43,817 nt of DNA from a virus (taxonomy: Duplodnaviria; Caudoviricetes), in IMG/VR virus record IMGVR_UViG_3300048893_000075, positions 1-43,817 of that record, one strand, 5' to 3'. A model generated the notes under the pieces. That model was not told the origin of the DNA. It saw only the letters and a program-made list of their open reading frames with translations, and searched no databases. Positions within the stretch are counted from its first letter, which is position 1; each line of letters opens with the position of its first letter. This document shows, in pieces, positions 1 through 43,817 of the stretch. A program made the position numbers and the translations under genes.

Positions 1-127
1 GCATAGGTGGCGCACCTCAGCAGTGTACATACCCTAGGCTTTATACCTTGGCGGCATGCAGGATGACTATACGAGTACATCTACCTTAACTAGGTAGCTC
101 TGAGCAACAGCACGGCGCGCTTCGCAA
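1..127. repeat. Terminal direct repeat (identical to 43691-43817); circular assembly overlap
   Basis: Exact 127-bp match of the window start and end; 127 is a common assembler k-mer size. Confidence 0.95.
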
Positions 128-219
128 GATGATCGAGTCGGTCTCGTTAAAGCATAGTGCTTAAAATAGTTGTCTCGGTCAAATCCCTGCCTTACTACCG
201 CATTGCATGCGTTCTCTAC
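1..219 (+). ncRNA. 3' part of stem-closed RNA domain G (starts at 43627, spans the junction, about 283 nt)
   Basis: 191-213 CTTACTACCGCATTGCATGCGTT pairs with 43632-43654 (23 bp, one G-U); no credible ORF. Confidence 0.6.
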
Positions 220-226
220 TTGTACA

Positions 227-393
227 TACATCAAGCTAGCTGGCTGCATAAGTGTCTAGGCTCCATGCCTATAGAACTGGTAAGTGTGTCTCCAGTCTTA
301 TGCAGTCAATACTGGCGGCGAGAAGGCACAAGAAGCGGTTACGCGCCGAATATGCAACGTAACATTGCCGCCAGTACCAGCCAGCTTGATGTA
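227..393 (+). ncRNA. Stem-closed RNA domain H (three-way junction)
   Basis: TACATCAAGCTaGCTGG pairs with CCAGCcAGCTTGATGTA; inner stems CTGCATAAG/CTTATGCAG and TACTGGCGGC/GCCGCCAGTA. Confidence 0.6.
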
Positions 394-398
394 CACCC

Positions 399-582
399 GA
401 GGGTATAGGGTTGGTCACAAAAAAATAGGTCAACTACCACATCGCCGTGAGTTGTTATGCGAAATGGGCGGCAAGTGAGCAATCGCCTTTCACGTCGGAG
501 CCTATGACAGCGAATAGTTCTTAAGCAAGGCGGTTTGTGGGGTGGCTCGCCTACTTGCCATTGTGACCAGCTCCATACCCTC
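399..582 (+). ncRNA. Stem-closed RNA domain I
   Basis: 399-420 pairs with 561-582 (22 bp, two G-U, one A-C); inner stem GGCAAGT/ACTTGCC. Confidence 0.6.
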
Positions 583-6069: not shown

Positions 6070-6154
6070 CCAAACACCTCTCCCCACCCCACTACCAAAG
6101 GTGGGGAGAATACCATATAGAGCGTTTACAGCAGCCAGCGAGTAAGGAGTGATT

Positions 6155-6394
6155 ATGGATTCAGAAAACAGCCGCGAATCAACCTTTGGCGAAAAAGCCG
6201 TAGGTGTTGGTTTTAACCCCTCAAAGAATGAAAAGGTTGACAAACTTAAAGAGCACTACGCTGCAATCATTGACATCCTAAACAGTGACCGTGGTGAAAA
6301 CCGTGACGAACGCGCCCGTCTCGCTTCCGTGGCCATTACCGAAGCACAAGGCGCTCAAATGTGGGCTGTCAAAGCAGTCACCTTTACACGCTAA
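6155..6394 (+). CDS. Acb2/Tad1-like helical hairpin protein (candidate nucleotide-signal sponge)
   Basis: FNPS...VD.LK...A.IID...RLASVAITEAQGAQMWAVKA resembles the C-terminal helix of Tad1/Acb2-type proteins; TAAGGAG site. Confidence 0.55.
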   Translation: MDSENSRESTFGEKAVGVGFNPSKNEKVDKLKEHYAAIIDILNSDRGENRDERARLASVAITEAQGAQMWAVKAVTFTR

Positions 6395-6459
6395 TAAGTT
6401 AACACGTCGCTGGCCGCTGCTAGCGCTCTAAGAACCATAGAACAAATAAAGGAGTTTAT

Positions 6460-12248: not shown

Positions 12249-12443
12249 TGGTATAATGTACCTAACAAAAGGGTCCGGTGCAAATAGACTTGTAGCGAGG
12301 TGTGTTAACCACATCTTTGCACTTTTTTAGTGCACCGTCCCCCATATTGTTGCGGGAAGCTTAATGCTTCTCGCTATGAGTCTCTATACGAAAATCACAA
12401 ACAAGCCAAGGGCGAAACGGTACGCTTCGGTTAAGGGTATCTA
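12249..12443 (+). promoter_or_regulatory. Extended -10 promoter and structured leader of the packaging operon
   Basis: TGGTATAAT 12249-12257; crossing helices 12276-12282/12331-12337 and 12286-12299/12370-12383. Confidence 0.6.
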
Positions 12444-12821
12444 ATGGCAAGTAAGGCACCCAAGATAACAGTCAAACAGGCAAAGTTTGTTAAGGGAATC
12501 GCTGAGGGTAAAAAGAAGCGCGATGCAGCACGTGATGCTGGATACTCAGGCAGCCCTGAGACTCTATCCGTTACAGCCAGCGAGGTACTAAGAAAGCCTA
12601 ATGTGCAAGAGGCGTTGCAGTCAGAGCTTGAAAAACAAGGTATTACCCTTGAAAAGATCATAAAGCCAATTACTAATGCTTTAAACAGCGACAGTGTTGA
12701 AACACAACTTAAAGGTCACGACCGTGCAATGAGAATTGTTGCGCCTCGTATGGACACGCCTACCTTTAATTTTAATTTCGGTACTGTCGTAAATGGTGAT
12801 AGGGAAAAGTATGGAATATAA
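12444..12821 (+). CDS. terS: Terminase small subunit
   Basis: T.KQ.KF...AARDAGYS.......ASE.L.KP.V helix-turn-helix signature; directly upstream of TerL. Confidence 0.88.
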   Translation: MASKAPKITVKQAKFVKGIAEGKKKRDAARDAGYSGSPETLSVTASEVLRKPNVQEALQSELEKQGITLEKIIKPITNALNSDSVETQLKGHDRAMRIVAPRMDTPTFNFNFGTVVNGDREKYGI

Positions 12822-13713
12822 ACCATACAAAGGCCTGAATTCCCTACAGAATAATGAGCCTAGGGGCCATACAGGCTTTAACTGGCGCGGTTACAGCGAC
12901 TTTATGTCTGACCGCTTCACTATTGTGGACAAAAAGAAGCAAGAGGTGCCATTCACACAGCAGCCCGCACAAGATGACTTCTTGTACTGGATGAGTGTTT
13001 ACTTAAATATCTTGATTCTCAAGGCTCGCAAGATGGGCTTTAGTTCTACCGCTCTAGGTGTAGGTACGACCAAGTTTATAAATGGCAAGAATGAAAAATG
13101 TGTCTCTATGTCTTTTGATGCCGATGCTTCGGTTAAACAGCTGGCGAGAGCTAAGCATTACATTAAGAGCTATGAGCGCAAGAAATCCCTGGAACTACAA
13201 CAAGAGTTTAAACTACCACTCAAATACAATTCAAAGAAAGAGTTGGTACTTGAATGCAAAGACGAGGAAACGGGTGAGGAGTGGATTAATACATTGCGTG
13301 TCGGTACGGCCAAGTCTACCTCTTTTGGACGTGGTGATGACATTACATTCTTGCACCTTACAGAGGTTGCATTTTGTGATGATGTAGAGGTGTTGCTGGC
13401 TGGTGTGGGCGAGGCATTAGTAGATGGTGCACATACTATATTTGAAACAACTGCTAATGGATTTAATTCATATAAGGCGTTCTGGGATGCCGCAATTCTA
13501 AACAAGAAGGGTTTTGCTGCGCTATTCTATTCGCCCATGTGGGAGTACGACCAAGAGTATTTAGACAACCGCGAGAAGAAGCTAGGCAGACTATTTACGC
13601 AAGAGTATCCAATGACCCCACAAGACGCGTTCCTTACATCTGGCTTACCCTACTTTGATACATACGCGATGCGCGACTACCTCAAGAGAGTACAGAAAGC
13701 TATGGCTCTATGA
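12811..13713 (+). CDS. terL: Terminase large subunit, ATPase half
   Basis: Walker A LKARKMGFSS, Walker B LHLTEVAF, coupling motif ETTANG; alternative start 12793. Confidence 0.9.
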   Translation: MEYKPYKGLNSLQNNEPRGHTGFNWRGYSDFMSDRFTIVDKKKQEVPFTQQPAQDDFLYWMSVYLNILILKARKMGFSSTALGVGTTKFINGKNEKCVSMSFDADASVKQLARAKHYIKSYERKKSLELQQEFKLPLKYNSKKELVLECKDEETGEEWINTLRVGTAKSTSFGRGDDITFLHLTEVAFCDDVEVLLAGVGEALVDGAHTIFETTANGFNSYKAFWDAAILNKKGFAALFYSPMWEYDQEYLDNREKKLGRLFTQEYPMTPQDAFLTSGLPYFDTYAMRDYLKRVQKAMAL

Positions 13714-14459
13714 ATCCGCTAGATAAAGACATGTTTAGGCAATACAGGGAGTTACGTAAGGGCGAGTTTATTATCGTGTTCGTAGATACAGCCGGGGAAG
13801 GTAGCGACTGGAATGCCGCCCACTTCTTGAGTAGGGAAGCCTTAGACATACCCATAGTGCTGCACTATGAAGGCTCGATAGTCGATGTGACCCCGAAGCT
13901 CAAGAATGCCCTGGAATGGATACACGACCAGACTGGTATCAAGCCAGTGGTAGCATACGAGACAAACAACGGTGGTGGCTACGAGCTTGAACGGCTGGCC
14001 AGGCTTAACAAATACGAGAAGTTTATAATATACCGCCAATACAAACTTGACGAACACGGCAAATTAAAGCGCAGTGACAAATTGGGCTGGAATACTAATT
14101 CAGCTACGCGCCCGGCAATGTTGTCAGGAGTGGAAGACCTAATTAATAACATGCTCGTGACTATCTATGATGAACCTACAGTTAACGAGATGTTCAGCTT
14201 TGTAAAGCACAAAACCCCGAGCGGTTGGCGGGCCGAGGCAGAAGAAGGCTCGACTGACGACCTTATTCTATCGCTCGCTGGAGTATGGCAATTGTACCAG
14301 ACAGAGAAACCGCAGCCCAATGGGCAGACAGGCGGTCGTGTAGTAAGAACCAACGTGAACAACGGCCGTATGCCCCCCATGACAGTTAACCCCGATGGAA
14401 CAATGAGATTAAATCTAGACTTTAGGAGAGCACATGCTAAAAAGTCCTTTCGCCGATAA
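13710..14459 (+). CDS. terL: Terminase large subunit, RNase H-like nuclease half
   Basis: FVDTAGEGSD, YETNNGG, GW.TN..TRP, DDLILSLA motifs. Confidence 0.88.
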   Translation: MNPLDKDMFRQYRELRKGEFIIVFVDTAGEGSDWNAAHFLSREALDIPIVLHYEGSIVDVTPKLKNALEWIHDQTGIKPVVAYETNNGGGYELERLARLNKYEKFIIYRQYKLDEHGKLKRSDKLGWNTNSATRPAMLSGVEDLINNMLVTIYDEPTVNEMFSFVKHKTPSGWRAEAEEGSTDDLILSLAGVWQLYQTEKPQPNGQTGGRVVRTNVNNGRMPPMTVNPDGTMRLNLDFRRAHAKKSFRR

Positions 14460-15649: not shown

Positions 15650-15794
15650 ACAAGCTAGAGCCACTAACCGAGTCATCCTGAAAGCAATAACCGTAACCCT
15701 GGAGAATGGCACGGAACTTAACCTAGACATTCACAGGGTTGATCTAATAGACAAGAGTACAAAGAAAAGATTATTTAAACTGGAGAGCAAGTGA
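15639..15794 (+). CDS. Small hypothetical protein (51 aa, not in ORF track)
   Basis: MSNKQARATNRVILKAITV...; overlaps both neighbouring genes. Confidence 0.55.
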   Translation: MSNKQARATNRVILKAITVTLENGTELNLDIHRVDLIDKSTKKRLFKLESK

Positions 15795-17377
15795 TGCAAG
15801 ATAAGACCGTAGATATTCAATTTGATGCAAATGCACACCGCGAAATAGCCCGGGGTGTTGAAATGATCAGCAAGGCGGTGGCTTCAACATATGGCCCTGG
15901 TGGCCGTACCGTGCTTATCAAGAAGCGCTATGTTGACCCAATGACTACTCGTGACGGTGTGACAGTAGCCCTTAACATTGCTGGCCCTGGCAAGAAGCTA
16001 GACACTGAACTAGCTACCATGGGTGCAAAACTCGTATACCAAGCAAGCAACAAGACTGCTAAAACTGCTGGTGACGGCACAACTGCAACTACCATTCTTA
16101 TGGCCGAACTATACAAATCAGGCTATAAGCAAATCGTAGCCGGCACGGATGCAACCGAAGTCGTAGCTAGTCTGAACAAAGACCGCGACACTATTGTTAA
16201 GTATGTTGAATCCAAGTCTAAGAAGTGTGATAAAAAGATGCTCGATCAGGTAGCTACTATCTCATGCCGTGACGATCAGCTAGGCCAGATGATCAGTGAC
16301 TTAGTGTGGGATGTTGGCGCAGACGGTGCTATTAACCTGGAATATCAGAACGCTCCACTTGTTGAAGTAGACAAGATAACTGGCTATATGTTTAGCAGCG
16401 GCTTCAAAGACCTTACAGCACGCGCAATACTAGGCGACCCGACTATACTTGTCACGCAAAAACCTTTGCGCTCACGTTCTGATATACTCCCCTTACTCGA
16501 CCTGCTTATCAAACAAGACAACCCATCTGTCATTATCGGCGACGTATCGAGTGCAGCTTACGAAACACTGCTATGGGCACTCAGCAACGATATTAATCTA
16601 GAGGATGGTTCGGTACGCCGTCTGACGTGCTTGGTGGTGCCTCCCCCTGCATATGGCAGCGATGGGCATGACTACTTTGAAGATATTGCTACGTATACAG
16701 GCGCACGGCTCATACTAGAGTCTGACGAGTTCAAGCAGGTTACATCTGCCCACTTCGGCACAGCTAAGGGCGCTATTATCGAGCGCCACAAGGCCGTGAT
16801 CTTTGGCGACAACAAAACTGGCGACGAGATAGCTGAGCGCATTAAGACTATTAAAACTCTAATGGCTGACACCGACATTAGCCCTAGCCAAAAAGAAGCA
16901 TACGAGCAGCGTTTAGCTAAGCTGGCTGGCAAGGTGTCCATCCTCAAGATCGGTGCCGCAACCGATGTAGAGCGTGAGGAGTTATTCTTTAGGGTTGAGG
17001 ATGCAGTAGAGGCTTGCAAGTCAGCATTAAGCAGTGGTGTCGTTGCTGGTGGTGCTACTACCTTACTGTTTGCTAGTCAGCTAGAGATTGAGCGGTTCGT
17101 AAGTGACGCACTACAAAAGCCATTCAAGCTACTCATGGAACATTCAGCAGAAGATAGCGGCCTACGCAAGCAGCAGATTCTAAAGGCTGGCTATGGCAAA
17201 GGCTTCAACCTGAAAGCTATGACCGATGAGCCTACTGATCTTAATGAAAGCGGCGTAGTTGACCCAACCAAGGTTGTATTACAGACAGTCAAGAATGCGT
17301 TTGCTAACGCCGGGGCTTTGCTTACTATGGGCACTACTATTACAGAGGTTGAAGAAGATGAAGCTACCAATAAATAA
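15794..17377 (+). CDS. groEL: GroEL-like chaperonin
   Basis: YGPGG, TRDGVTVA, AGDGTT, RLAKLAG, RVEDAV, GVVAGG, GVVDPTKV. Confidence 0.95.
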   Translation: MQDKTVDIQFDANAHREIARGVEMISKAVASTYGPGGRTVLIKKRYVDPMTTRDGVTVALNIAGPGKKLDTELATMGAKLVYQASNKTAKTAGDGTTATTILMAELYKSGYKQIVAGTDATEVVASLNKDRDTIVKYVESKSKKCDKKMLDQVATISCRDDQLGQMISDLVWDVGADGAINLEYQNAPLVEVDKITGYMFSSGFKDLTARAILGDPTILVTQKPLRSRSDILPLLDLLIKQDNPSVIIGDVSSAAYETLLWALSNDINLEDGSVRRLTCLVVPPPAYGSDGHDYFEDIATYTGARLILESDEFKQVTSAHFGTAKGAIIERHKAVIFGDNKTGDEIAERIKTIKTLMADTDISPSQKEAYEQRLAKLAGKVSILKIGAATDVEREELFFRVEDAVEACKSALSSGVVAGGATTLLFASQLEIERFVSDALQKPFKLLMEHSAEDSGLRKQQILKAGYGKGFNLKAMTDEPTDLNESGVVDPTKVVLQTVKNAFANAGALLTMGTTITEVEEDEATNK

Positions 17378-38329: not shown

Positions 38330-38415
38330 TGGTGGAGGGTGCGGGGGTCGAACCCGCTCTCCCGCGAAGGAATCCGTTTTACAGACGGTTGCATTAACCG
38401 TTCTGCCAACCCCCC
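38330..38415 (-). tRNA. tRNA-Tyr(GTA)
   Basis: Reverse complement gives acceptor GGGGGGT/ACCCTCC-A-CCA, anticodon loop CTGTAAA, long variable arm, GGTTCGA T arm; minus-strand GGTATAAT at 38522-38529. Confidence 0.9.
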
Positions 38416-38729: not shown

Positions 38730-38849
38730 TGGTATACTGGCAGTGTCTAGGTACAAGGTAGTGTGTTCGAACAAGGATTGGGGTACTTCCCGAAAGAGGT
38801 TCGAACACCTTTGTACCTAGACAGTGCTAGGGGAGTGCCCCAATTTTTA
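38730..38849 (+). ncRNA. Small RNA with a long hairpin and a competing 15-bp loop-tail helix
   Basis: TGGTATACT promoter; 38744-38758/38809-38823, 38763-38772/38799-38808 and 38777-38791/38830-38844 pairings. Confidence 0.6.
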
Positions 38850-40880: not shown

Positions 40881-40918
40881 TAACAACAATTGACATAAAC
40901 AACCATTAGGAGTACTAT
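40881..40918 (+). promoter_or_regulatory. Main early promoter candidate; copy 2 of the 29-bp repeat
   Basis: TTGACA(40890)-17 bp-TACTAT(40913). Confidence 0.75.
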
Positions 40919-40993
40919 AGGGATAGTTAATTGAACTTTCACATAGCTACAGCGAAGATTACACATCAGAAGGTGTAGCTAAAAATAGCCCGT

Positions 40994-41072
40994 GCGGGCT
41001 TTCGAGCCTAACGCTTAGAGCGCATCCTTGCCAAGGATGAGGCCAGGGGTTAGAGTCCCCTGACCCGCACCA
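40994..41072 (+). tRNA. tRNA-Gly(GCC)-like sequence with degenerate 5'/D arm; probable attP core (about 41015-41072)
   Basis: CATCC-TTGCCAA-GGATG anticodon arm, CAGGG/CCCTG T arm, CCCGC-A-CCA end; adjacent to the integrase. Confidence 0.75.
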
Positions 41073-41090
41073 CATATTTTTAGCCATTAT

Positions 41091-41125
41091 AAACCCTTCT
41101 GATGAAGAATCAGGAGGGTTTTTTT
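41091..41125 (+). terminator. Intrinsic terminator after attP
   Basis: AAACCCTTCTGAT/ATCAGGAGGGTTT plus T run. Confidence 0.8.
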
Positions 41126-41366
41126 GTTACCTCTTTAGGCCACGACACATCCCTGTGACCTAAAGAGCCCGATAACGAAACTTATCGCGCAGTTAGCGGT
41201 CGTCCCCGTTCAAGGACGCAAGCGTTTGAATGATCTGATAAAAGCTTTGAGTGTCTACTCGTTAGAAGCTTCCAGATCAACTAGCTTGAGAGATTCATCT
41301 CCGAGGTGGAGATACAACGGTTCTTTTACAACTTATATCGGGATTGTCACTAATAAGGAGACAATC

Positions 41367-41732
41367 ATGCAATACATTTTCGTTATGCCTAACGGTAAAG
41401 AGATTCGCATGGATAAGACTTACTTTGAAAAGCACATGCCAAAATCGAATATCAAATACCACCCCTACGGCGTTAGTGGCGACGGGTACATCCACCCTGA
41501 TGATATCGACAAGATATTTAGCCGTCACAGCCGTAAGGTAAAAACGATCTTTGACACCGCCAAAAAGCTCTACAAAGAATACGAGGGCAAAAACTGGCTT
41601 GGCTTACCCGAAACAGTACGCGATCTGGTATGGATTCAGCACCAAACTGCGGAAGAGGAACAGCAGAGCCGCCAGGAAGACCTACGATTCTTTAGGAGCT
41701 ACGAGCTAGGTGTACGTGCAGTAGCAGCATAG
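41367..41732 (+). CDS. Hypothetical protein, first early gene
   Basis: TAAGGAG site before ATG 41367, held in hairpin GATTGTC/GACAATC. Confidence 0.75.
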   Translation: MQYIFVMPNGKEIRMDKTYFEKHMPKSNIKYHPYGVSGDGYIHPDDIDKIFSRHSRKVKTIFDTAKKLYKEYEGKNWLGLPETVRDLVWIQHQTAEEEQQSRQEDLRFFRSYELGVRAVAA

Positions 41733-41801
41733 ATATGTCCAGCATTTATTGCTGGCAACCCCGATATAAGAAGCAAAAGACCAAAACCAGAAGGAGCGCA
41801 T

Positions 41802-42386
41802 ATGAAGGGACTCATAAAAGCCCTAAGTATCGCCCTGTTAAGTGCGGCCTTAATCAGCCTAGCACCTAACAAGGAAGCTCCGGCGCAACTTAACAATTCA
41901 ACTCAACCAACGAGTAGTTCGGTAATTCCGGACAACTCGGAACCAGAGACACAGCGAACACGAGCACCAATTCAACAGGACAAACGCGACGAAAAGGTAG
42001 CAGTGAAAACTGAAACAGAGTTGAAGCCGGAGAGTACGGCCAGGCAAGTAAAACCCGCCGTACCAAGTAATACACAAGGATGCGAACAATACCGTCACCT
42101 ATTCGAACAATACGCTTGGCCTGTTAATACCGCCTTGGCTATATGCCAGGCAGAGAGTAGCGGAAACATACAGGCTGTGAACTGGGGAGATAACCACGGC
42201 AAGTGTAAGGGGAGTTTTTCCCTTATGCAAGTCGGCTGTTTCTGGTACCCACATTTTGGATATTCTGAAGCAGATAGGTACAAACCAGAAGTAAACGTAA
42301 AAATAGCATATCAGATATATGAACGTCAGAAGTCTTTCGGGGCGTGGACTACATATACTGGTGGGCGGTATCTCAAGTTCTTGTAG
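41802..42386 (+). CDS. Secreted lytic transglycosylase (SLT/lysozyme-like)
   Basis: Signal peptide, low-complexity linker, AESSGN catalytic Glu, SLMQV, NV..AY.IY, AW..Y. Confidence 0.85.
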   Translation: MKGLIKALSIALLSAALISLAPNKEAPAQLNNSTQPTSSSVIPDNSEPETQRTRAPIQQDKRDEKVAVKTETELKPESTARQVKPAVPSNTQGCEQYRHLFEQYAWPVNTALAICQAESSGNIQAVNWGDNHGKCKGSFSLMQVGCFWYPHFGYSEADRYKPEVNVKIAYQIYERQKSFGAWTTYTGGRYLKFL

Positions 42387-42541
42387 GTTAAGGACGGATA
42401 GCTAGTAGCAATGGCCGAATTTAGTAGGCTATGCCGATTGAGGAATGTAACGGCACCTGATGAGAGATTCTAGAGAGTGCTCATTAAGGCGGCGATCCGC
42501 GCAACAGTTACATCATTGCTACTAGCTATCCGTCCTTAACC
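42386..42541 (+). ncRNA. Stem-closed RNA domain A
   Basis: Perfect 28-bp inverted repeat 42386-42413/42514-42541; inner stems ATGTAAC/GTTACAT and TGATGAG/CTCATTA. Confidence 0.65.
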
Positions 42542-42544
42542 AAC

Positions 42545-42676
42545 CCCTAGCGCCTACTCAAGCGGTCACAAGGAGCATCAATACTTGAACGGATTAACGG
42601 TCAACAATAGCCGCCGCAGGTATTGTGCTGGGCACAGCTTAAACGGTTCACACAACCGCTTGCGTGGGCGCTAGGG
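42545..42676 (+). ncRNA. Stem-closed RNA domain B
   Basis: 42545-42566/42655-42676 (22 bp, one mismatch, one G-U); inner CAATACTTG/CAGGTATTG; followed by a C(UUCG)G hairpin. Confidence 0.6.
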
Positions 42677-42698
42677 TGGAGGCTTCGGCCTTCTATAT

Positions 42699-42775
42699 GC
42701 GGCAGTACATGGCACAAGCAAGGTCTTTGGAATTGTACCTATGCTTGCCAGTTCGAATCTGGAACTGCCGCAACT
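42699..42775 (+). ncRNA. tRNA-like RNA C (no D arm, long central arm)
   Basis: GCGGCAGT/ACTGCCGC stem, CCAG-TTCGAAT-CTGG T arm, CAAGCA/TGCTTG arm; no encoded CCA. Confidence 0.6.
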
Positions 42776-42779
42776 ATAT

Positions 42780-42857
42780 GGGGTGCTTAACAAGGATGTT
42801 AGCCAGGGGTTTACGTTCCCTGGGGCAGTTAGGTTCGATTCCTAAAGCCCCCCGCCA
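42780..42857 (+). tRNA. Non-canonical tRNA-like RNA D (8/5 fold, possible TAC anticodon)
   Basis: GGGGTGCT/AGCCCCCC-G-CCA, TAACA/TGTTA, CCAGGG/CCCTGG, TTAGG-TTCGATT-CCTAA. Confidence 0.65.
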
Positions 42858-42873
42858 AACTATATAAACCAAC

Positions 42874-43046
42874 AAGGGCAGGAATCCGGTAGCAAGGCTC
42901 GAATCTAAGGACGAATTTATAAAGTGCTCGTTCAGCGTCGCCCTACCTATACCAAGCACGTAGGTGGTAGGGAATCAGCGTAAGATTGGCAGCGTAAACG
43001 TCGTTGGGGTTTCGCCAACCCTACTTGCTATCGGTTTTATGCCCTT
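42874..43046 (+). ncRNA. Stem-closed RNA domain E
   Basis: AAGGGCA/TGCCCTT plus CCGGTAGCAAG/CTTGCTATCGG; inner CCCTACC/GGTAGGG and GTTGG/CCAAC. Confidence 0.6.
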
Positions 43047-43073
43047 ACATAAGTAAATAGAAGGAGTGGAGAT

Positions 43074-43304
43074 ATGGAATACAGAGATAAGGTAAAAAGC
43101 TACCTTGAAAATATTGGGGTGACTGTTCAGCGTATTGAGCAAGAAGGTGATACAGAGTCTGTGGTCTGCCATATATCATCAATCGACAAACAAAAAATAA
43201 TAGATGCACAAACAAAAATCGAGGACGACCTTAACTCTGTTGTGCAGCTTAGCGATATGTTCGGCATGAATGTAGTTATCGTTGAATCAAATGATCTTGA
43301 ATAA
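43074..43304 (+). CDS. Hypothetical acidic protein inside the RNA array
   Basis: GGAG site; 76 aa. Confidence 0.7.
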   Translation: MEYRDKVKSYLENIGVTVQRIEQEGDTESVVCHISSIDKQKIIDAQTKIEDDLNSVVQLSDMFGMNVVIVESNDLE

Positions 43305-43336
43305 CCACTCTTAATCACATAGGAAGGGAGAGAGAT

Positions 43337-43504
43337 ATGGGAAAGAGAATTAGTTTAAGTGACGTCGAGGTACAGTTTTTACTGAGACTCTGTCTTAGGG
43401 AGGATAGAATCCGTAACACAGCAGACGCTTCTACGGTGTTTGCCGAGGAATCCCTAGATAAGCTTATCCAAAAGCTTGACTCGACTGTAAAGGAAGAGGG
43501 CTAA
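43337..43504 (+). CDS. Hypothetical protein (55 aa, not in ORF track) inside the RNA array
   Basis: GGAG site; MGKRISLSDVEVQFLLRL...VKEEG. Confidence 0.6.
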   Translation: MGKRISLSDVEVQFLLRLCLREDRIRNTADASTVFAEESLDKLIQKLDSTVKEEG

Positions 43505-43523
43505 CCACCCTTTAACCAAATAA

Positions 43524-43625
43524 GTAAGAGCCAACTAGCTGCCGGGGAGTCTGTAGATAAGGACACCTGAACGTGAGGCCGTCAACTACATGCGCAAGAT
43601 TCGCCGGTGTGTAGTTGGCTCTTAC
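43524..43625 (+). ncRNA. Stem-closed RNA domain F
   Basis: Perfect 14-bp GTAAGAGCCAACTA/TAGTTGGCTCTTAC; inner GCCGG/CCGGT, GAGTCT/AGATTC, TGTAG/CTACA. Confidence 0.6.
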
Positions 43626-43626
43626 G

Positions 43627-43817
43627 GTAGAAACGCATGTAATGCGGTAGTAAGTGGCGGAATAGGTAGACGTTATCGACGCCATAACAAGCATAGGTGG
43701 CGCACCTCAGCAGTGTACATACCCTAGGCTTTATACCTTGGCGGCATGCAGGATGACTATACGAGTACATCTACCTTAACTAGGTAGCTCTGAGCAACAG
43801 CACGGCGCGCTTCGCAA
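43627..43817 (+). ncRNA. 5' part of stem-closed RNA domain G (continues to 219)
   Basis: 43627-43654 pairs with 191-219 across the junction. Confidence 0.6.
43691..43817. repeat. Terminal direct repeat (identical to 1-127)
   Basis: Exact match to 1-127. Confidence 0.95.

Follow-up and report, generated by a model that had tools for sequence, protein, structure and literature searches.

A junction-spanning array of stem-closed units in a circular phage genome, with exchangeable interiors and a tRNA-end-like handle

We analyzed all 43,817 nucleotides (nt) of the virus record IMGVR_UViG_3300048893_000075 (hereafter the window), a circular phage genome (Caudoviricetes) whose circle measures 43,690 nt because its ends form a direct repeat, and focused on a block of mostly stem-closed, non-coding units, A to I, that spans the circular junction (Table 1). 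We found that these units have closing helices of their own, that rows of such units recur in related loci (labeled L006, L291 and so on when compared with the window), that their interiors are exchanged between phages, and that paired positions covary in two elements: a closing stem resembling the end of a tRNA, here called the handle, and a family of tRNA-framed RNAs typified by unit G. These features suggest that the units are exchangeable cassettes from which host ribonuclease (RNase) III and RNase P would release stable RNAs. Judged from the sequences, this account as a whole appears just probable, and the broader view that the units are separate stable RNAs by some route appears quite probable.

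The initial annotation described seven units (A, B and E to I) with gaps of 3, 1, 7 and 5 nt between close neighbors, and this layout was reproduced. When folded, each had its own terminal helix, and z-scores on the plus strand, taken against 100 dinucleotide shuffles, ranged from -4.3 to -9.3 (A -9.3, B -7.3, E -4.3, F -5.9, G -5.1, H -6.2, I -4.9). The 1895-nt block contained 7 long-range stems scoring at least 15, compared with a mean of 0.055 and a maximum of 1 in 200 resampled blocks; the remaining 41.8 kb had 6 such stems versus 0–1 in four resamplings. The units are non-coding, the longest ATG-to-stop frame inside any of them being 21 amino acids (aa). Also, scans against Rfam detected no family, GOLLD and ROOL included, that explains the block. 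At the gathering score the whole window gave two tRNAs only, and the block at expect (E) values up to 10 gave a weak tRNA-Sec match at unit D and otherwise chance matches, unit G not being scanned in one piece across the junction.

The earlier view that the units share no obvious primary sequence did not hold, since the inner-stem arms of A, E and G are related (type GUAGYAA / UURCUAY); judged by these arms, the array units are not wholly unrelated. C and D are tRNA-like as had been noted, but the count of such RNAs rises from two to three because G is also tRNA-framed, and the bracketed design is not confined to the range proposed, as it also surrounds two protein genes outside it. Unit C has an acceptor-like stem and a canonical T-loop hairpin, without a D-arm, within an extended stem. 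Unit D, which folds no better than shuffles (z-scores -0.6 to -0.9), scored 26.5 bits against the tRNA-Sec cut-off of 47 and was not called by ARAGORN. In unit H, arm 1 (~240–308) is a three-way junction and arm 2 (311–375) is an 11-base-pair (bp) helix followed by ACCA (376–379). Several interiors were used as queries. A pattern for the slot of A gave no real match (0 of 71) and no family; a pattern for E gave ordinary tRNAs or chance matches (9 of 9) and no family; the interior of I had no homologue; and short motifs of A, B, F and I were not convincingly found in related loci.

Among stem imperfections, which we counted strand-neutrally, G-U is the largest class but makes up only about half (9 G-U, 2 A-C and 6 other in the window), where most were first reported to be G-U; in the arrays of 33 relatives, G-U and A-C numbered 87 and 53. 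The conclusion that the structures act as RNA was supported, but energy is no guide, as minus-strand folds of G, H and I are equally good or better, and the sense strand was assigned from the tRNA-type motifs instead. The inverted repeats could alternatively act as DNA, either as folded recombination sites or as the ends of non-autonomous mobile elements moved by the neighboring tyrosine recombinase. Consistent with this possibility, an integrase gene is found 1.5 kb upstream, the stems are where interiors are exchanged, and energies favor neither strand for G, H and I. However, the repeat differs from unit to unit, neither a flanking duplication nor a core site in common was seen, the integrase reaches 73.5 on the integron model, far below the cut-off of 265, and the conserved G·U pairs, CCA and D- and T-arm motifs are RNA signatures. 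We regard a DNA-level function as highly improbable. An integron cassette array was rejected on the same integrase score and differing repeats, with no shared attC-type site.

Table 1. Positions of the array units, bracketed genes and neighboring features in the window
Feature	Positions	Strand	Description
Terminal direct repeat	1..127		Identical to 43691-43817
Unit G, 3' part	128..219	+	Rest of insert 2, T-loop end, T-stem 3' strand (185-190)
Unit H	227..393	+	Outer stem enclosing two arms
Unit I	399..582	+	Outer stem, G-started 11-bp helix (410-571), then UCCA (572-575)
Stand-alone stem-bracketed cassette	6118..6430	+	Acb2/Tad1-family gene 6191-6394 (PF24729, E 7e-10)
Promoter match, sigma-70 type	40890..40918	+	10/12; after integrase
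Stem-bracketed cassette	41332..41770	+	Shine-Dalgarno and 121-aa open reading frame (ORF) (41367-41732), no family
Lytic-transglycosylase-like gene (SLT_3)	41802..42386	+	Last stop-codon base is first base of unit A
Unit A	42386..42541	+	~26-bp terminal stem; interior without homologue
Unit B	42545..42676	+	22-bp terminal stem, branched interior
Unit C, tRNA-like RNA	42689..42781	+	Core 42699-42772
Unit D, irregular tRNA-like RNA	42780..42857	+	Ends GCCA; 9-nt loop at anticodon position
Unit E	42874..43046	+	23-bp terminal stem, handle-like inner arms (18/24 letters)
76-aa ORF	43074..43304	+	Shine-Dalgarno, unbracketed, no family; kept in relative
55-aa ORF	43337..43504	+	Shine-Dalgarno, unbracketed, no family
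Unit F	43524..43625	+	Long interrupted terminal stem
Unit G, 5' part	43627..43817	+	283 nt in all, continues at 128-219

Cargo exchange and the tRNA-end-like handle

Relatives were sought with the upstream SLT gene as bait. A long stem starting no more than 35 nt from the SLT stop was present in 11 of the 84 loci with enough downstream DNA, representing six distinct sequence types. In L006, L016, L052/L054, L058, L069 and L086/L087, three to five units abut in a row, and further arrays of abutting units occur in L231, L245, L270, L271 and L291; the L016 record, with a row of five, has 14 of 37 proteins in common with the window, virion genes included. Other routes yielded little: the block had no blastn match in 50,697 records of named phages, the integrase as bait in viral contigs gave no locus, and an SLT alignment in species genomes gave one unrelated match. 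Rfam scans of related loci, 60 in all, detected only ordinary tRNAs, rliG, mcrA and one chance miRNA match. In L021 (462-775), an HNH-like ORF with paired ends interrupts the last SLT codons, which is not so in the near-identical L019.

Units vary as cassettes between related phages, a point that the initial annotation had proposed to check. For example, in a relative from an independent DNA run, whose SLT gene has 14 differences in 391 nt, the outer stem of A is common up to 42397 and then gives way to other sequence; sequence from this run keeps B and the 76-aa ORF, has a different, fully paired hairpin with a 7-nt loop in place of the T-arm of C, and leaves F after 43530. Elsewhere, an A-like outer stem encloses a G-type RNA (L035), and a common bracket surrounds a 60-nt RNA in L014 and an HNH gene in L082. 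Unit H follows G in the window and precedes it in a gut-type phage group, and G-type RNAs stand alone within tRNA clusters of other phages. Arm 1 of H has seven near-identical relatives beside G-type RNAs in a second phage group, in which the junction letters and one hairpin are kept and the other two helices change and stay paired; these relatives are two lineages, not a deep family. Covariation was found where relatives exist (G, the outer stem of the handle, H arm 1 and the T-arm of C); B, E, F and I lack family-level support.

This variation bears on the possibility that the block is one long cis-acting leader RNA, serving as an antitermination scaffold or in translational control of the downstream early genes and bracketed ORFs. 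Its position just ahead of a long run of small plus-strand genes would suit a leader, as would the brackets around ORFs, which have a Shine-Dalgarno sequence beside the 5' arm and an alternative local hairpin in the 3' arm. That unit number, order (as for H and G) and interior differ freely between phages, and that G-type RNAs occur alone in tRNA clusters, makes such a role quite unlikely.

The handle was defined in viral contigs by a 17-letter pattern of its 5' arm, which gave 111 matches, 22 of them with a 12-nt partner and 20 of these distinct. L255 and L265 were dropped as chance matches (partner 492 nt away, tail CGTG), leaving 18 distinct cassettes. The handle consists of an outer helix of ~10 bp, a GUA/CA internal loop, GU/AC, a 12-bp helix starting at G1-C72, and a tail, which is ACCA in 16, ACAA in one and GCCA in one of the 18 cassettes (with L255 and L265 included, ACCA would be 16 of 20). 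U-1, G1-C72, the 12-bp register (last pair G-A in 3) and G4·U are present in 18/18, RCCA in 17/18 and U9·G in 14/18. The CA of the handle faces GUA, and pairing does not require CA. Over 14 distinct arms the outer helix is 87% paired versus 70±2% for shuffled partners; such shuffles, here and for the G family below, ignore relatedness, which counts against the reading that we favor. Cargos within the handle span 36–211 nt, and one is a 64-aa gene. Only 2 of 153 cargo pairs are clearly related (L249/L270 and L276/L279), with one more sharing 13 nt. Many handle loci are arrays too; in two of their records, none of the proteins tested is shared with the window. A small cargo family with a conserved 15-letter core was seen in three unrelated arrays (L014 at 6412, L214 at 214, and L240 at 181 on the minus strand), with no Rfam match.

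In the window, the inner 12 bp of unit A (42401-42412 / 42515-42526) match 22 of the 24 letters of the handle consensus, a score reached by 0 of 300 random pieces, and are followed by UAUC instead of ACCA. According to the available part of PMC11143913, determinants of RNase P cleavage include U-1, G+1/C+72, RCCA and a 12-bp ruler, and simple hairpins are also cut. The handle in relatives has these substrate features, and the window has them only in part.

Unit G and its tRNA-framed family

The 5' part of unit G contains an outer stem, an 11-bp extended acceptor and a Leu-type D-arm (43657-43673), followed by insert 1, which replaces the anticodon and variable arms, the 5' strand of the T-stem (43748-43753), and insert 2, which begins inside the T-loop. 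Beyond the junction the T-stem is followed by the 3' strand of the acceptor (191-201) and the outer stem, with no CCA encoded. A Logan contig of 43,720 nt, possibly from the same sample, spans the junction and has the 3' arm of G at the expected offset.

The family was anchored on sequence motifs alone. A D-arm pattern search yielded 120 loci, and the T-loop motif was present in 58 of 70 distinct D-arm matches, which collapse to 35 cores; the other 12, among them ordinary tRNA-Leu genes, contig ends and anchor variants, were left out. In the 35 cores the 6-bp T-stem is 96.7% paired versus 76.8±2.1% with shuffled partners (maximum 85.7%), and the 12 acceptor positions are 90.5% paired versus 53.9±2.9% (maximum 64.5%). 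The inner six acceptor pairs hold in all 35, with up to five pair types. Between the D- and T-arm lie 29–191 nt of unrelated sequence in place of the anticodon and variable arms, the acceptor has 7 or ~12 bp, and the T-loop is UGCAAAU, often with an insert of 45–115 nt after UG (a second insert inside the T-loop was found in 37 of 58 RNAs). G-type RNAs with the full handle and ACCA occur in L133, L194, L199 and L214. In a large group of near-identical phages (L084 10969-11399, L096 6426-6874 and many of L098-L217) we observed nested arrays, in which one outer stem surrounds three to four inner units and the two G-type inserts appear in mixed combinations.

These data can be set against the possibility that the units are selfish or decayed tRNA-derived passengers at a tolerant site, of no use to the phage. 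The HNH nuclease gene within the L082 bracket, the irregular tRNAs C and D, and the accessory status of the arrays would all fit passengers. However, pairing in the G family has survived many changes on both sides of the helices in phages whose hosts differ, and the junction letters of H arm 1 are kept while two helices change. A passenger origin without function is thus very unlikely.

Twenty-one named phage records had a match, and nine of these were retrieved, all of which parse as G-type. They belong to cultured Firmicutes phages (of Latilactobacillus, Weissella, Listeria, Lactobacillus, Brochothrix, Enterococcus, Bacillus and Lacticaseibacillus) and have an acceptor of ~7 bp, A73 in six of nine, and no encoded CCA; none of the nine is annotated as an RNA. 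Bacterial leucyl-tRNA synthetase ignores the anticodon, so leucylation of the 7-bp form of G can be tested. Among 401 genomes of one Firmicutes class the D-arm motif was present in only five (three G-type, one ordinary tRNA-Leu and one unclear), suggesting that the RNA is accessory. An exact 25-nt search from G gave no match. In temperate Firmicutes phages (L218-L226) the position after the ArpU/LmaC activator gene, occupied by rliG in other Listeria phages, often has a G-type RNA. In one Listeria phage the rliG model matched the leader upstream of the G-type RNA, and the alignment was lost at the RNA itself. Listeria rliG was therefore rejected both as an identity for G and as a proxy for its expression; the expression in lysogeny described in the available part of PMC7397523 concerns the same genomic slot, not the G-type RNA.

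Other identities for G were considered and rejected. It is not a canonical tRNA, as it has no anticodon arm of 5 bp with a 7-nt loop, no 7/5 branch and no UUC T-loop. Transfer-messenger RNA was detected neither by ARAGORN nor by Rfam; besides, G has a D-stem, and the wobble of the handle is at position 4, not G3·U70. An allo-tRNA was not supported, G being 11+6 and D having only a sub-threshold tRNA-Sec score. A group I intron had no Rfam support, and the family alignment explains the letters in question as the T-loop insert. For a bulge-helix-bulge intron at this insert, the predicted spliced loop differs from the loop of insert-free members. Ribozyme readings (hammerhead in A and H, hepatitis delta virus-like, pistol, twister) were also dropped, having no Rfam support.

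Predicted release of the units and comparison with known systems

The initial annotation proposed a polycistronic set of RNAs released by RNase III-type cleavage. Its RNA-level, non-coding and cassette-like character stands, but the release is now better described through the tRNA-end-like handle, and the cargo can be a small gene. Because the gaps are only 1–7 nt, the block is likely transcribed as one RNA, from which host tRNA- and rRNA-processing enzymes would produce separate stable RNAs. The substrates of RNase III are duplexes of about two helical turns, and its cuts leave 3' overhangs of 2 nt. Duplexes of this size are present in the stems of A, B, E and G (22–31 bp) and in the handle (10 bp, loop and 14 bp). 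RNase III would cut at the internal loop between the two handle helices, a double cut that would leave the CA of ACCA as the usual overhang, and RNase P would next trim the 5' side to G1. The product would be protected at its ends as a mature tRNA is, with an interior of any kind. The conservation of a tRNA-end-like handle points to maturation by RNase P and through CCA as well as by RNase III; with the degenerate handle of the window, stem cleavage alone would suffice for the release of some units, or CCA would have to be added. The conserved arms may double as anchors for cargo exchange by recombination.

Brackets of this design surround a Shine-Dalgarno sequence and one small ORF in L006, L019, L025 and the window. 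Nine bracketed ORFs were scanned, of which two were Acb2/Tad1-like (one in the window, the other in L025 with E 8e-6, just under the Pfam cut-off), one was an HNH nuclease (L082) and six had no informative match. The fast-changing cargos might act on host RNA-binding or tRNA-targeting defenses, as Acb2/Tad1 genes do at the protein level. Such a counter-defense or decoy role is a guess prompted by the hypervariability, the accessory status and the two bracketed genes of a sponge family. The ORF brackets of L006 (1846-3178), L019 (1195-1708) and L026 (1513-1989) have a stretch of non-canonical stem in common, and in all three the 3' arm can form a local hairpin instead, which could serve as a switch.

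Several observations weigh against release through the handle or against the proposed role. In the window, unit A alone matches the handle beyond other long stems: E, G, H arm 2 and I score 17–18 of 24, and four long stems outside the array score 15–18. NCCA is found in D, H arm 2 and I, and encoded CCA is absent from A, E and G. In the intact precursor the outer helix would flank ACCA, itself partly paired, and RNase P should be hindered before another cut. No consensus promoter was found directly ahead of A; the best match is followed by a terminator-like hairpin (41091-41121), past which transcription would reach the array only by read-through. Unit B is present in one relative, where one change breaks a stem pair. 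Most SLT-bearing loci, and the TM7 phage DolZOral124_53_65, have no such array, so the array is accessory. T-loop hairpins occurred once in 7.0 kb of the relatives' arrays versus once in 40.3 kb, and an enrichment of T-arms in these arrays was not supported. Finally, the link to defense rests on two bracketed genes, one of them under the Pfam cut-off.

Part of this evidence would also fit separate stable RNAs in whose making tRNA enzymes are minor. Linkers would be cut by single-strand endonucleases or stems by RNase III, paired ends would block exonucleases, and the handle would mainly be a recombination anchor inherited from a tRNA end. Most brackets in the window, L006, L016, L019 and L069 are without NCCA, the linkers are A/C-rich and only 1–7 nt long, and the phage encodes a Rad52/Erf-like annealing protein. 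However, a pure anchor needs no unpaired CA, fixed 12-bp length or invariant wobble, and we consider this explanation unlikely. A broader form of release by RNase III and RNase P is possible but doubtful: that the 12-bp helix with ACCA is a general phage RNA expression vector making the host treat any enclosed sequence as a tRNA, with arrays delivering shuffled decoy RNAs and single-gene messages against defenses, and the G family serving as a display scaffold with two hypervariable loops.

Parts of this design are known elsewhere. RNase III stalks bracket 16S and 23S rRNA, and RNase III sites occur in the early transcript of phage T7. As in the array, long helices of the rRNA stalks bracket a product, and one transcript is cut into units; in contrast to rRNA and T7, every array unit has its own stalk, some stalks carry a 12-bp helix and ACCA, and content is exchanged between genomes. 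Engineered expression in tRNA scaffolds is established, and the C4 RNA of phages P1 and P7 is a natural non-tRNA substrate of RNase P. Pre-4.5S RNA and hairpins are also non-tRNA substrates of this enzyme, as stated in the portion of PMC11143913 available to us. In all of these, as in the handle, arbitrary RNA gains stable, host-made ends from tRNA-like termini; unlike them, the handle is natural, repeated and conserved in sequence, with many unrelated cargos including a gene.

Resemblance to individual RNAs is more limited. T4 species 1 and 2 RNAs (rnaC and rnaD), from the T4 tRNA cluster, have no assigned role in the accessible parts of PMC3014915 and PMC9697503. In architecture only, rnaC resembles G, with a tRNA-like frame and a canonical T-arm around an enlarged non-decoding middle. 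Compared by eye, rnaC and rnaD lack the Leu-type D-arm, 6-bp T-stem, UGCAAAU loop and handle; both are surrounded by functional tRNAs, and within the stretch read neither has a separate long outer stem. YrlA Y RNAs combine paired ends with a tRNA-like D/T module, and one is cut by RNase P and gains CCA (PMC4201824, available text). In contrast, G has its D-arm before the T-arm, open acceptor ends and no GNCGAAN0-1G motif; unit A has GCCGAA without the closing G of this motif, and no TROVE match indicating a Ro60 gene was found among the 73 ORFs scanned. Polycistrons of allo-tRNAs and irregular tRNAs (PMC5389517) and the tRNA-Other of B. cereus (PMC3399842) are, in the portions available, rows of non-canonical tRNA-like RNAs, some acting outside translation. 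Those RNAs retain an anticodon within a cloverleaf, their 12-bp branch is divided 8/4 or 9/3, and allo-tRNAs have a long variable arm, whereas G has 7 or 11–13 plus 6 bp and no anticodon arm, and most array units are not cloverleaves. GOLLD and ROOL are structured RNAs of phages and prophages, often near tRNAs and without an assigned role in the accessible part of 10.1101/2024.12.08.627333; they are single large conserved folds, whereas the array has short independent units with no Rfam match. A retron msr-msd was rejected, as no reverse transcriptase was found among the 73 ORFs.

We found no description of the handle or the G family in the open-access literature. The catalogue of unnamed viral RNA motifs in PMC10690425, the largest of its kind, could hold either; six of its supplementary files gave no match, files 1, 2 and 4 being outside the search. 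Few cases of RNA-based counter-defense are known, and tRNA-framed RNAs of phages, T4 rnaC among them, have gone without an assigned role for decades. The handle is a searchable mark for dozens of candidate phage small RNAs at once, and the biochemical prediction that it makes is precise and cheap to test (cleavage by RNase III followed by RNase P, with ends at G1 and CCA). Also, the covarying G family is present in cultured phages of lactic acid bacteria and Bacillus, open to deletion and assay. If the handle works as predicted, it would be a natural counterpart of engineered tRNA scaffolds.

Phage, host and gene setting

The plus strand carries nearly all phage genes, and the 73 ORFs scanned include an integrase, an SU10-type portal and adaptor, a chaperonin, an amidase, a Rad52/Erf-like protein, YopX, and the Acb2/Tad1 and SLT-domain genes. 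The phage is from soil, and its host is likely a member of Saccharibacteria, because, among named matches, the capsid protein is closest to that of TM7 phage DolZOral124_53_65 (36.5%), a phage that matches 9 of 37 window proteins tested, and the only organism-named relative of the integrase is from Ca. Moranbacteria (37%). For relatives such a host is not certain, since in one proviral record with the handle, half of the sequence is GC-rich and gives a weak WhiB match (E 5e-3).

Directly after the integrase, between the strong promoter match and the terminator-like hairpin, lies a tRNA-Gly(GCC)-like gene (40957-41121) that is enclosed by extra stems, ends in ACCA and has been rebuilt in its 5' part. 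Over the 64 nt at its 3' end it shares 88% identity with tRNA-like stretches of L080 and L094, and it may therefore be the attachment site. Two more stem-closed non-coding units of ~95 nt were observed outside the array (38737-38848 and 12286-12383), the former near a tRNA-Tyr gene on the minus strand (38330-38415). The large terminase appears as two overlapping ORFs, one of 306 aa (12793-13713) and one of 249 aa (13710-14459). The head module contains a gene for a GroEL-type chaperonin (15791-17377), as it does in the TM7 phage.

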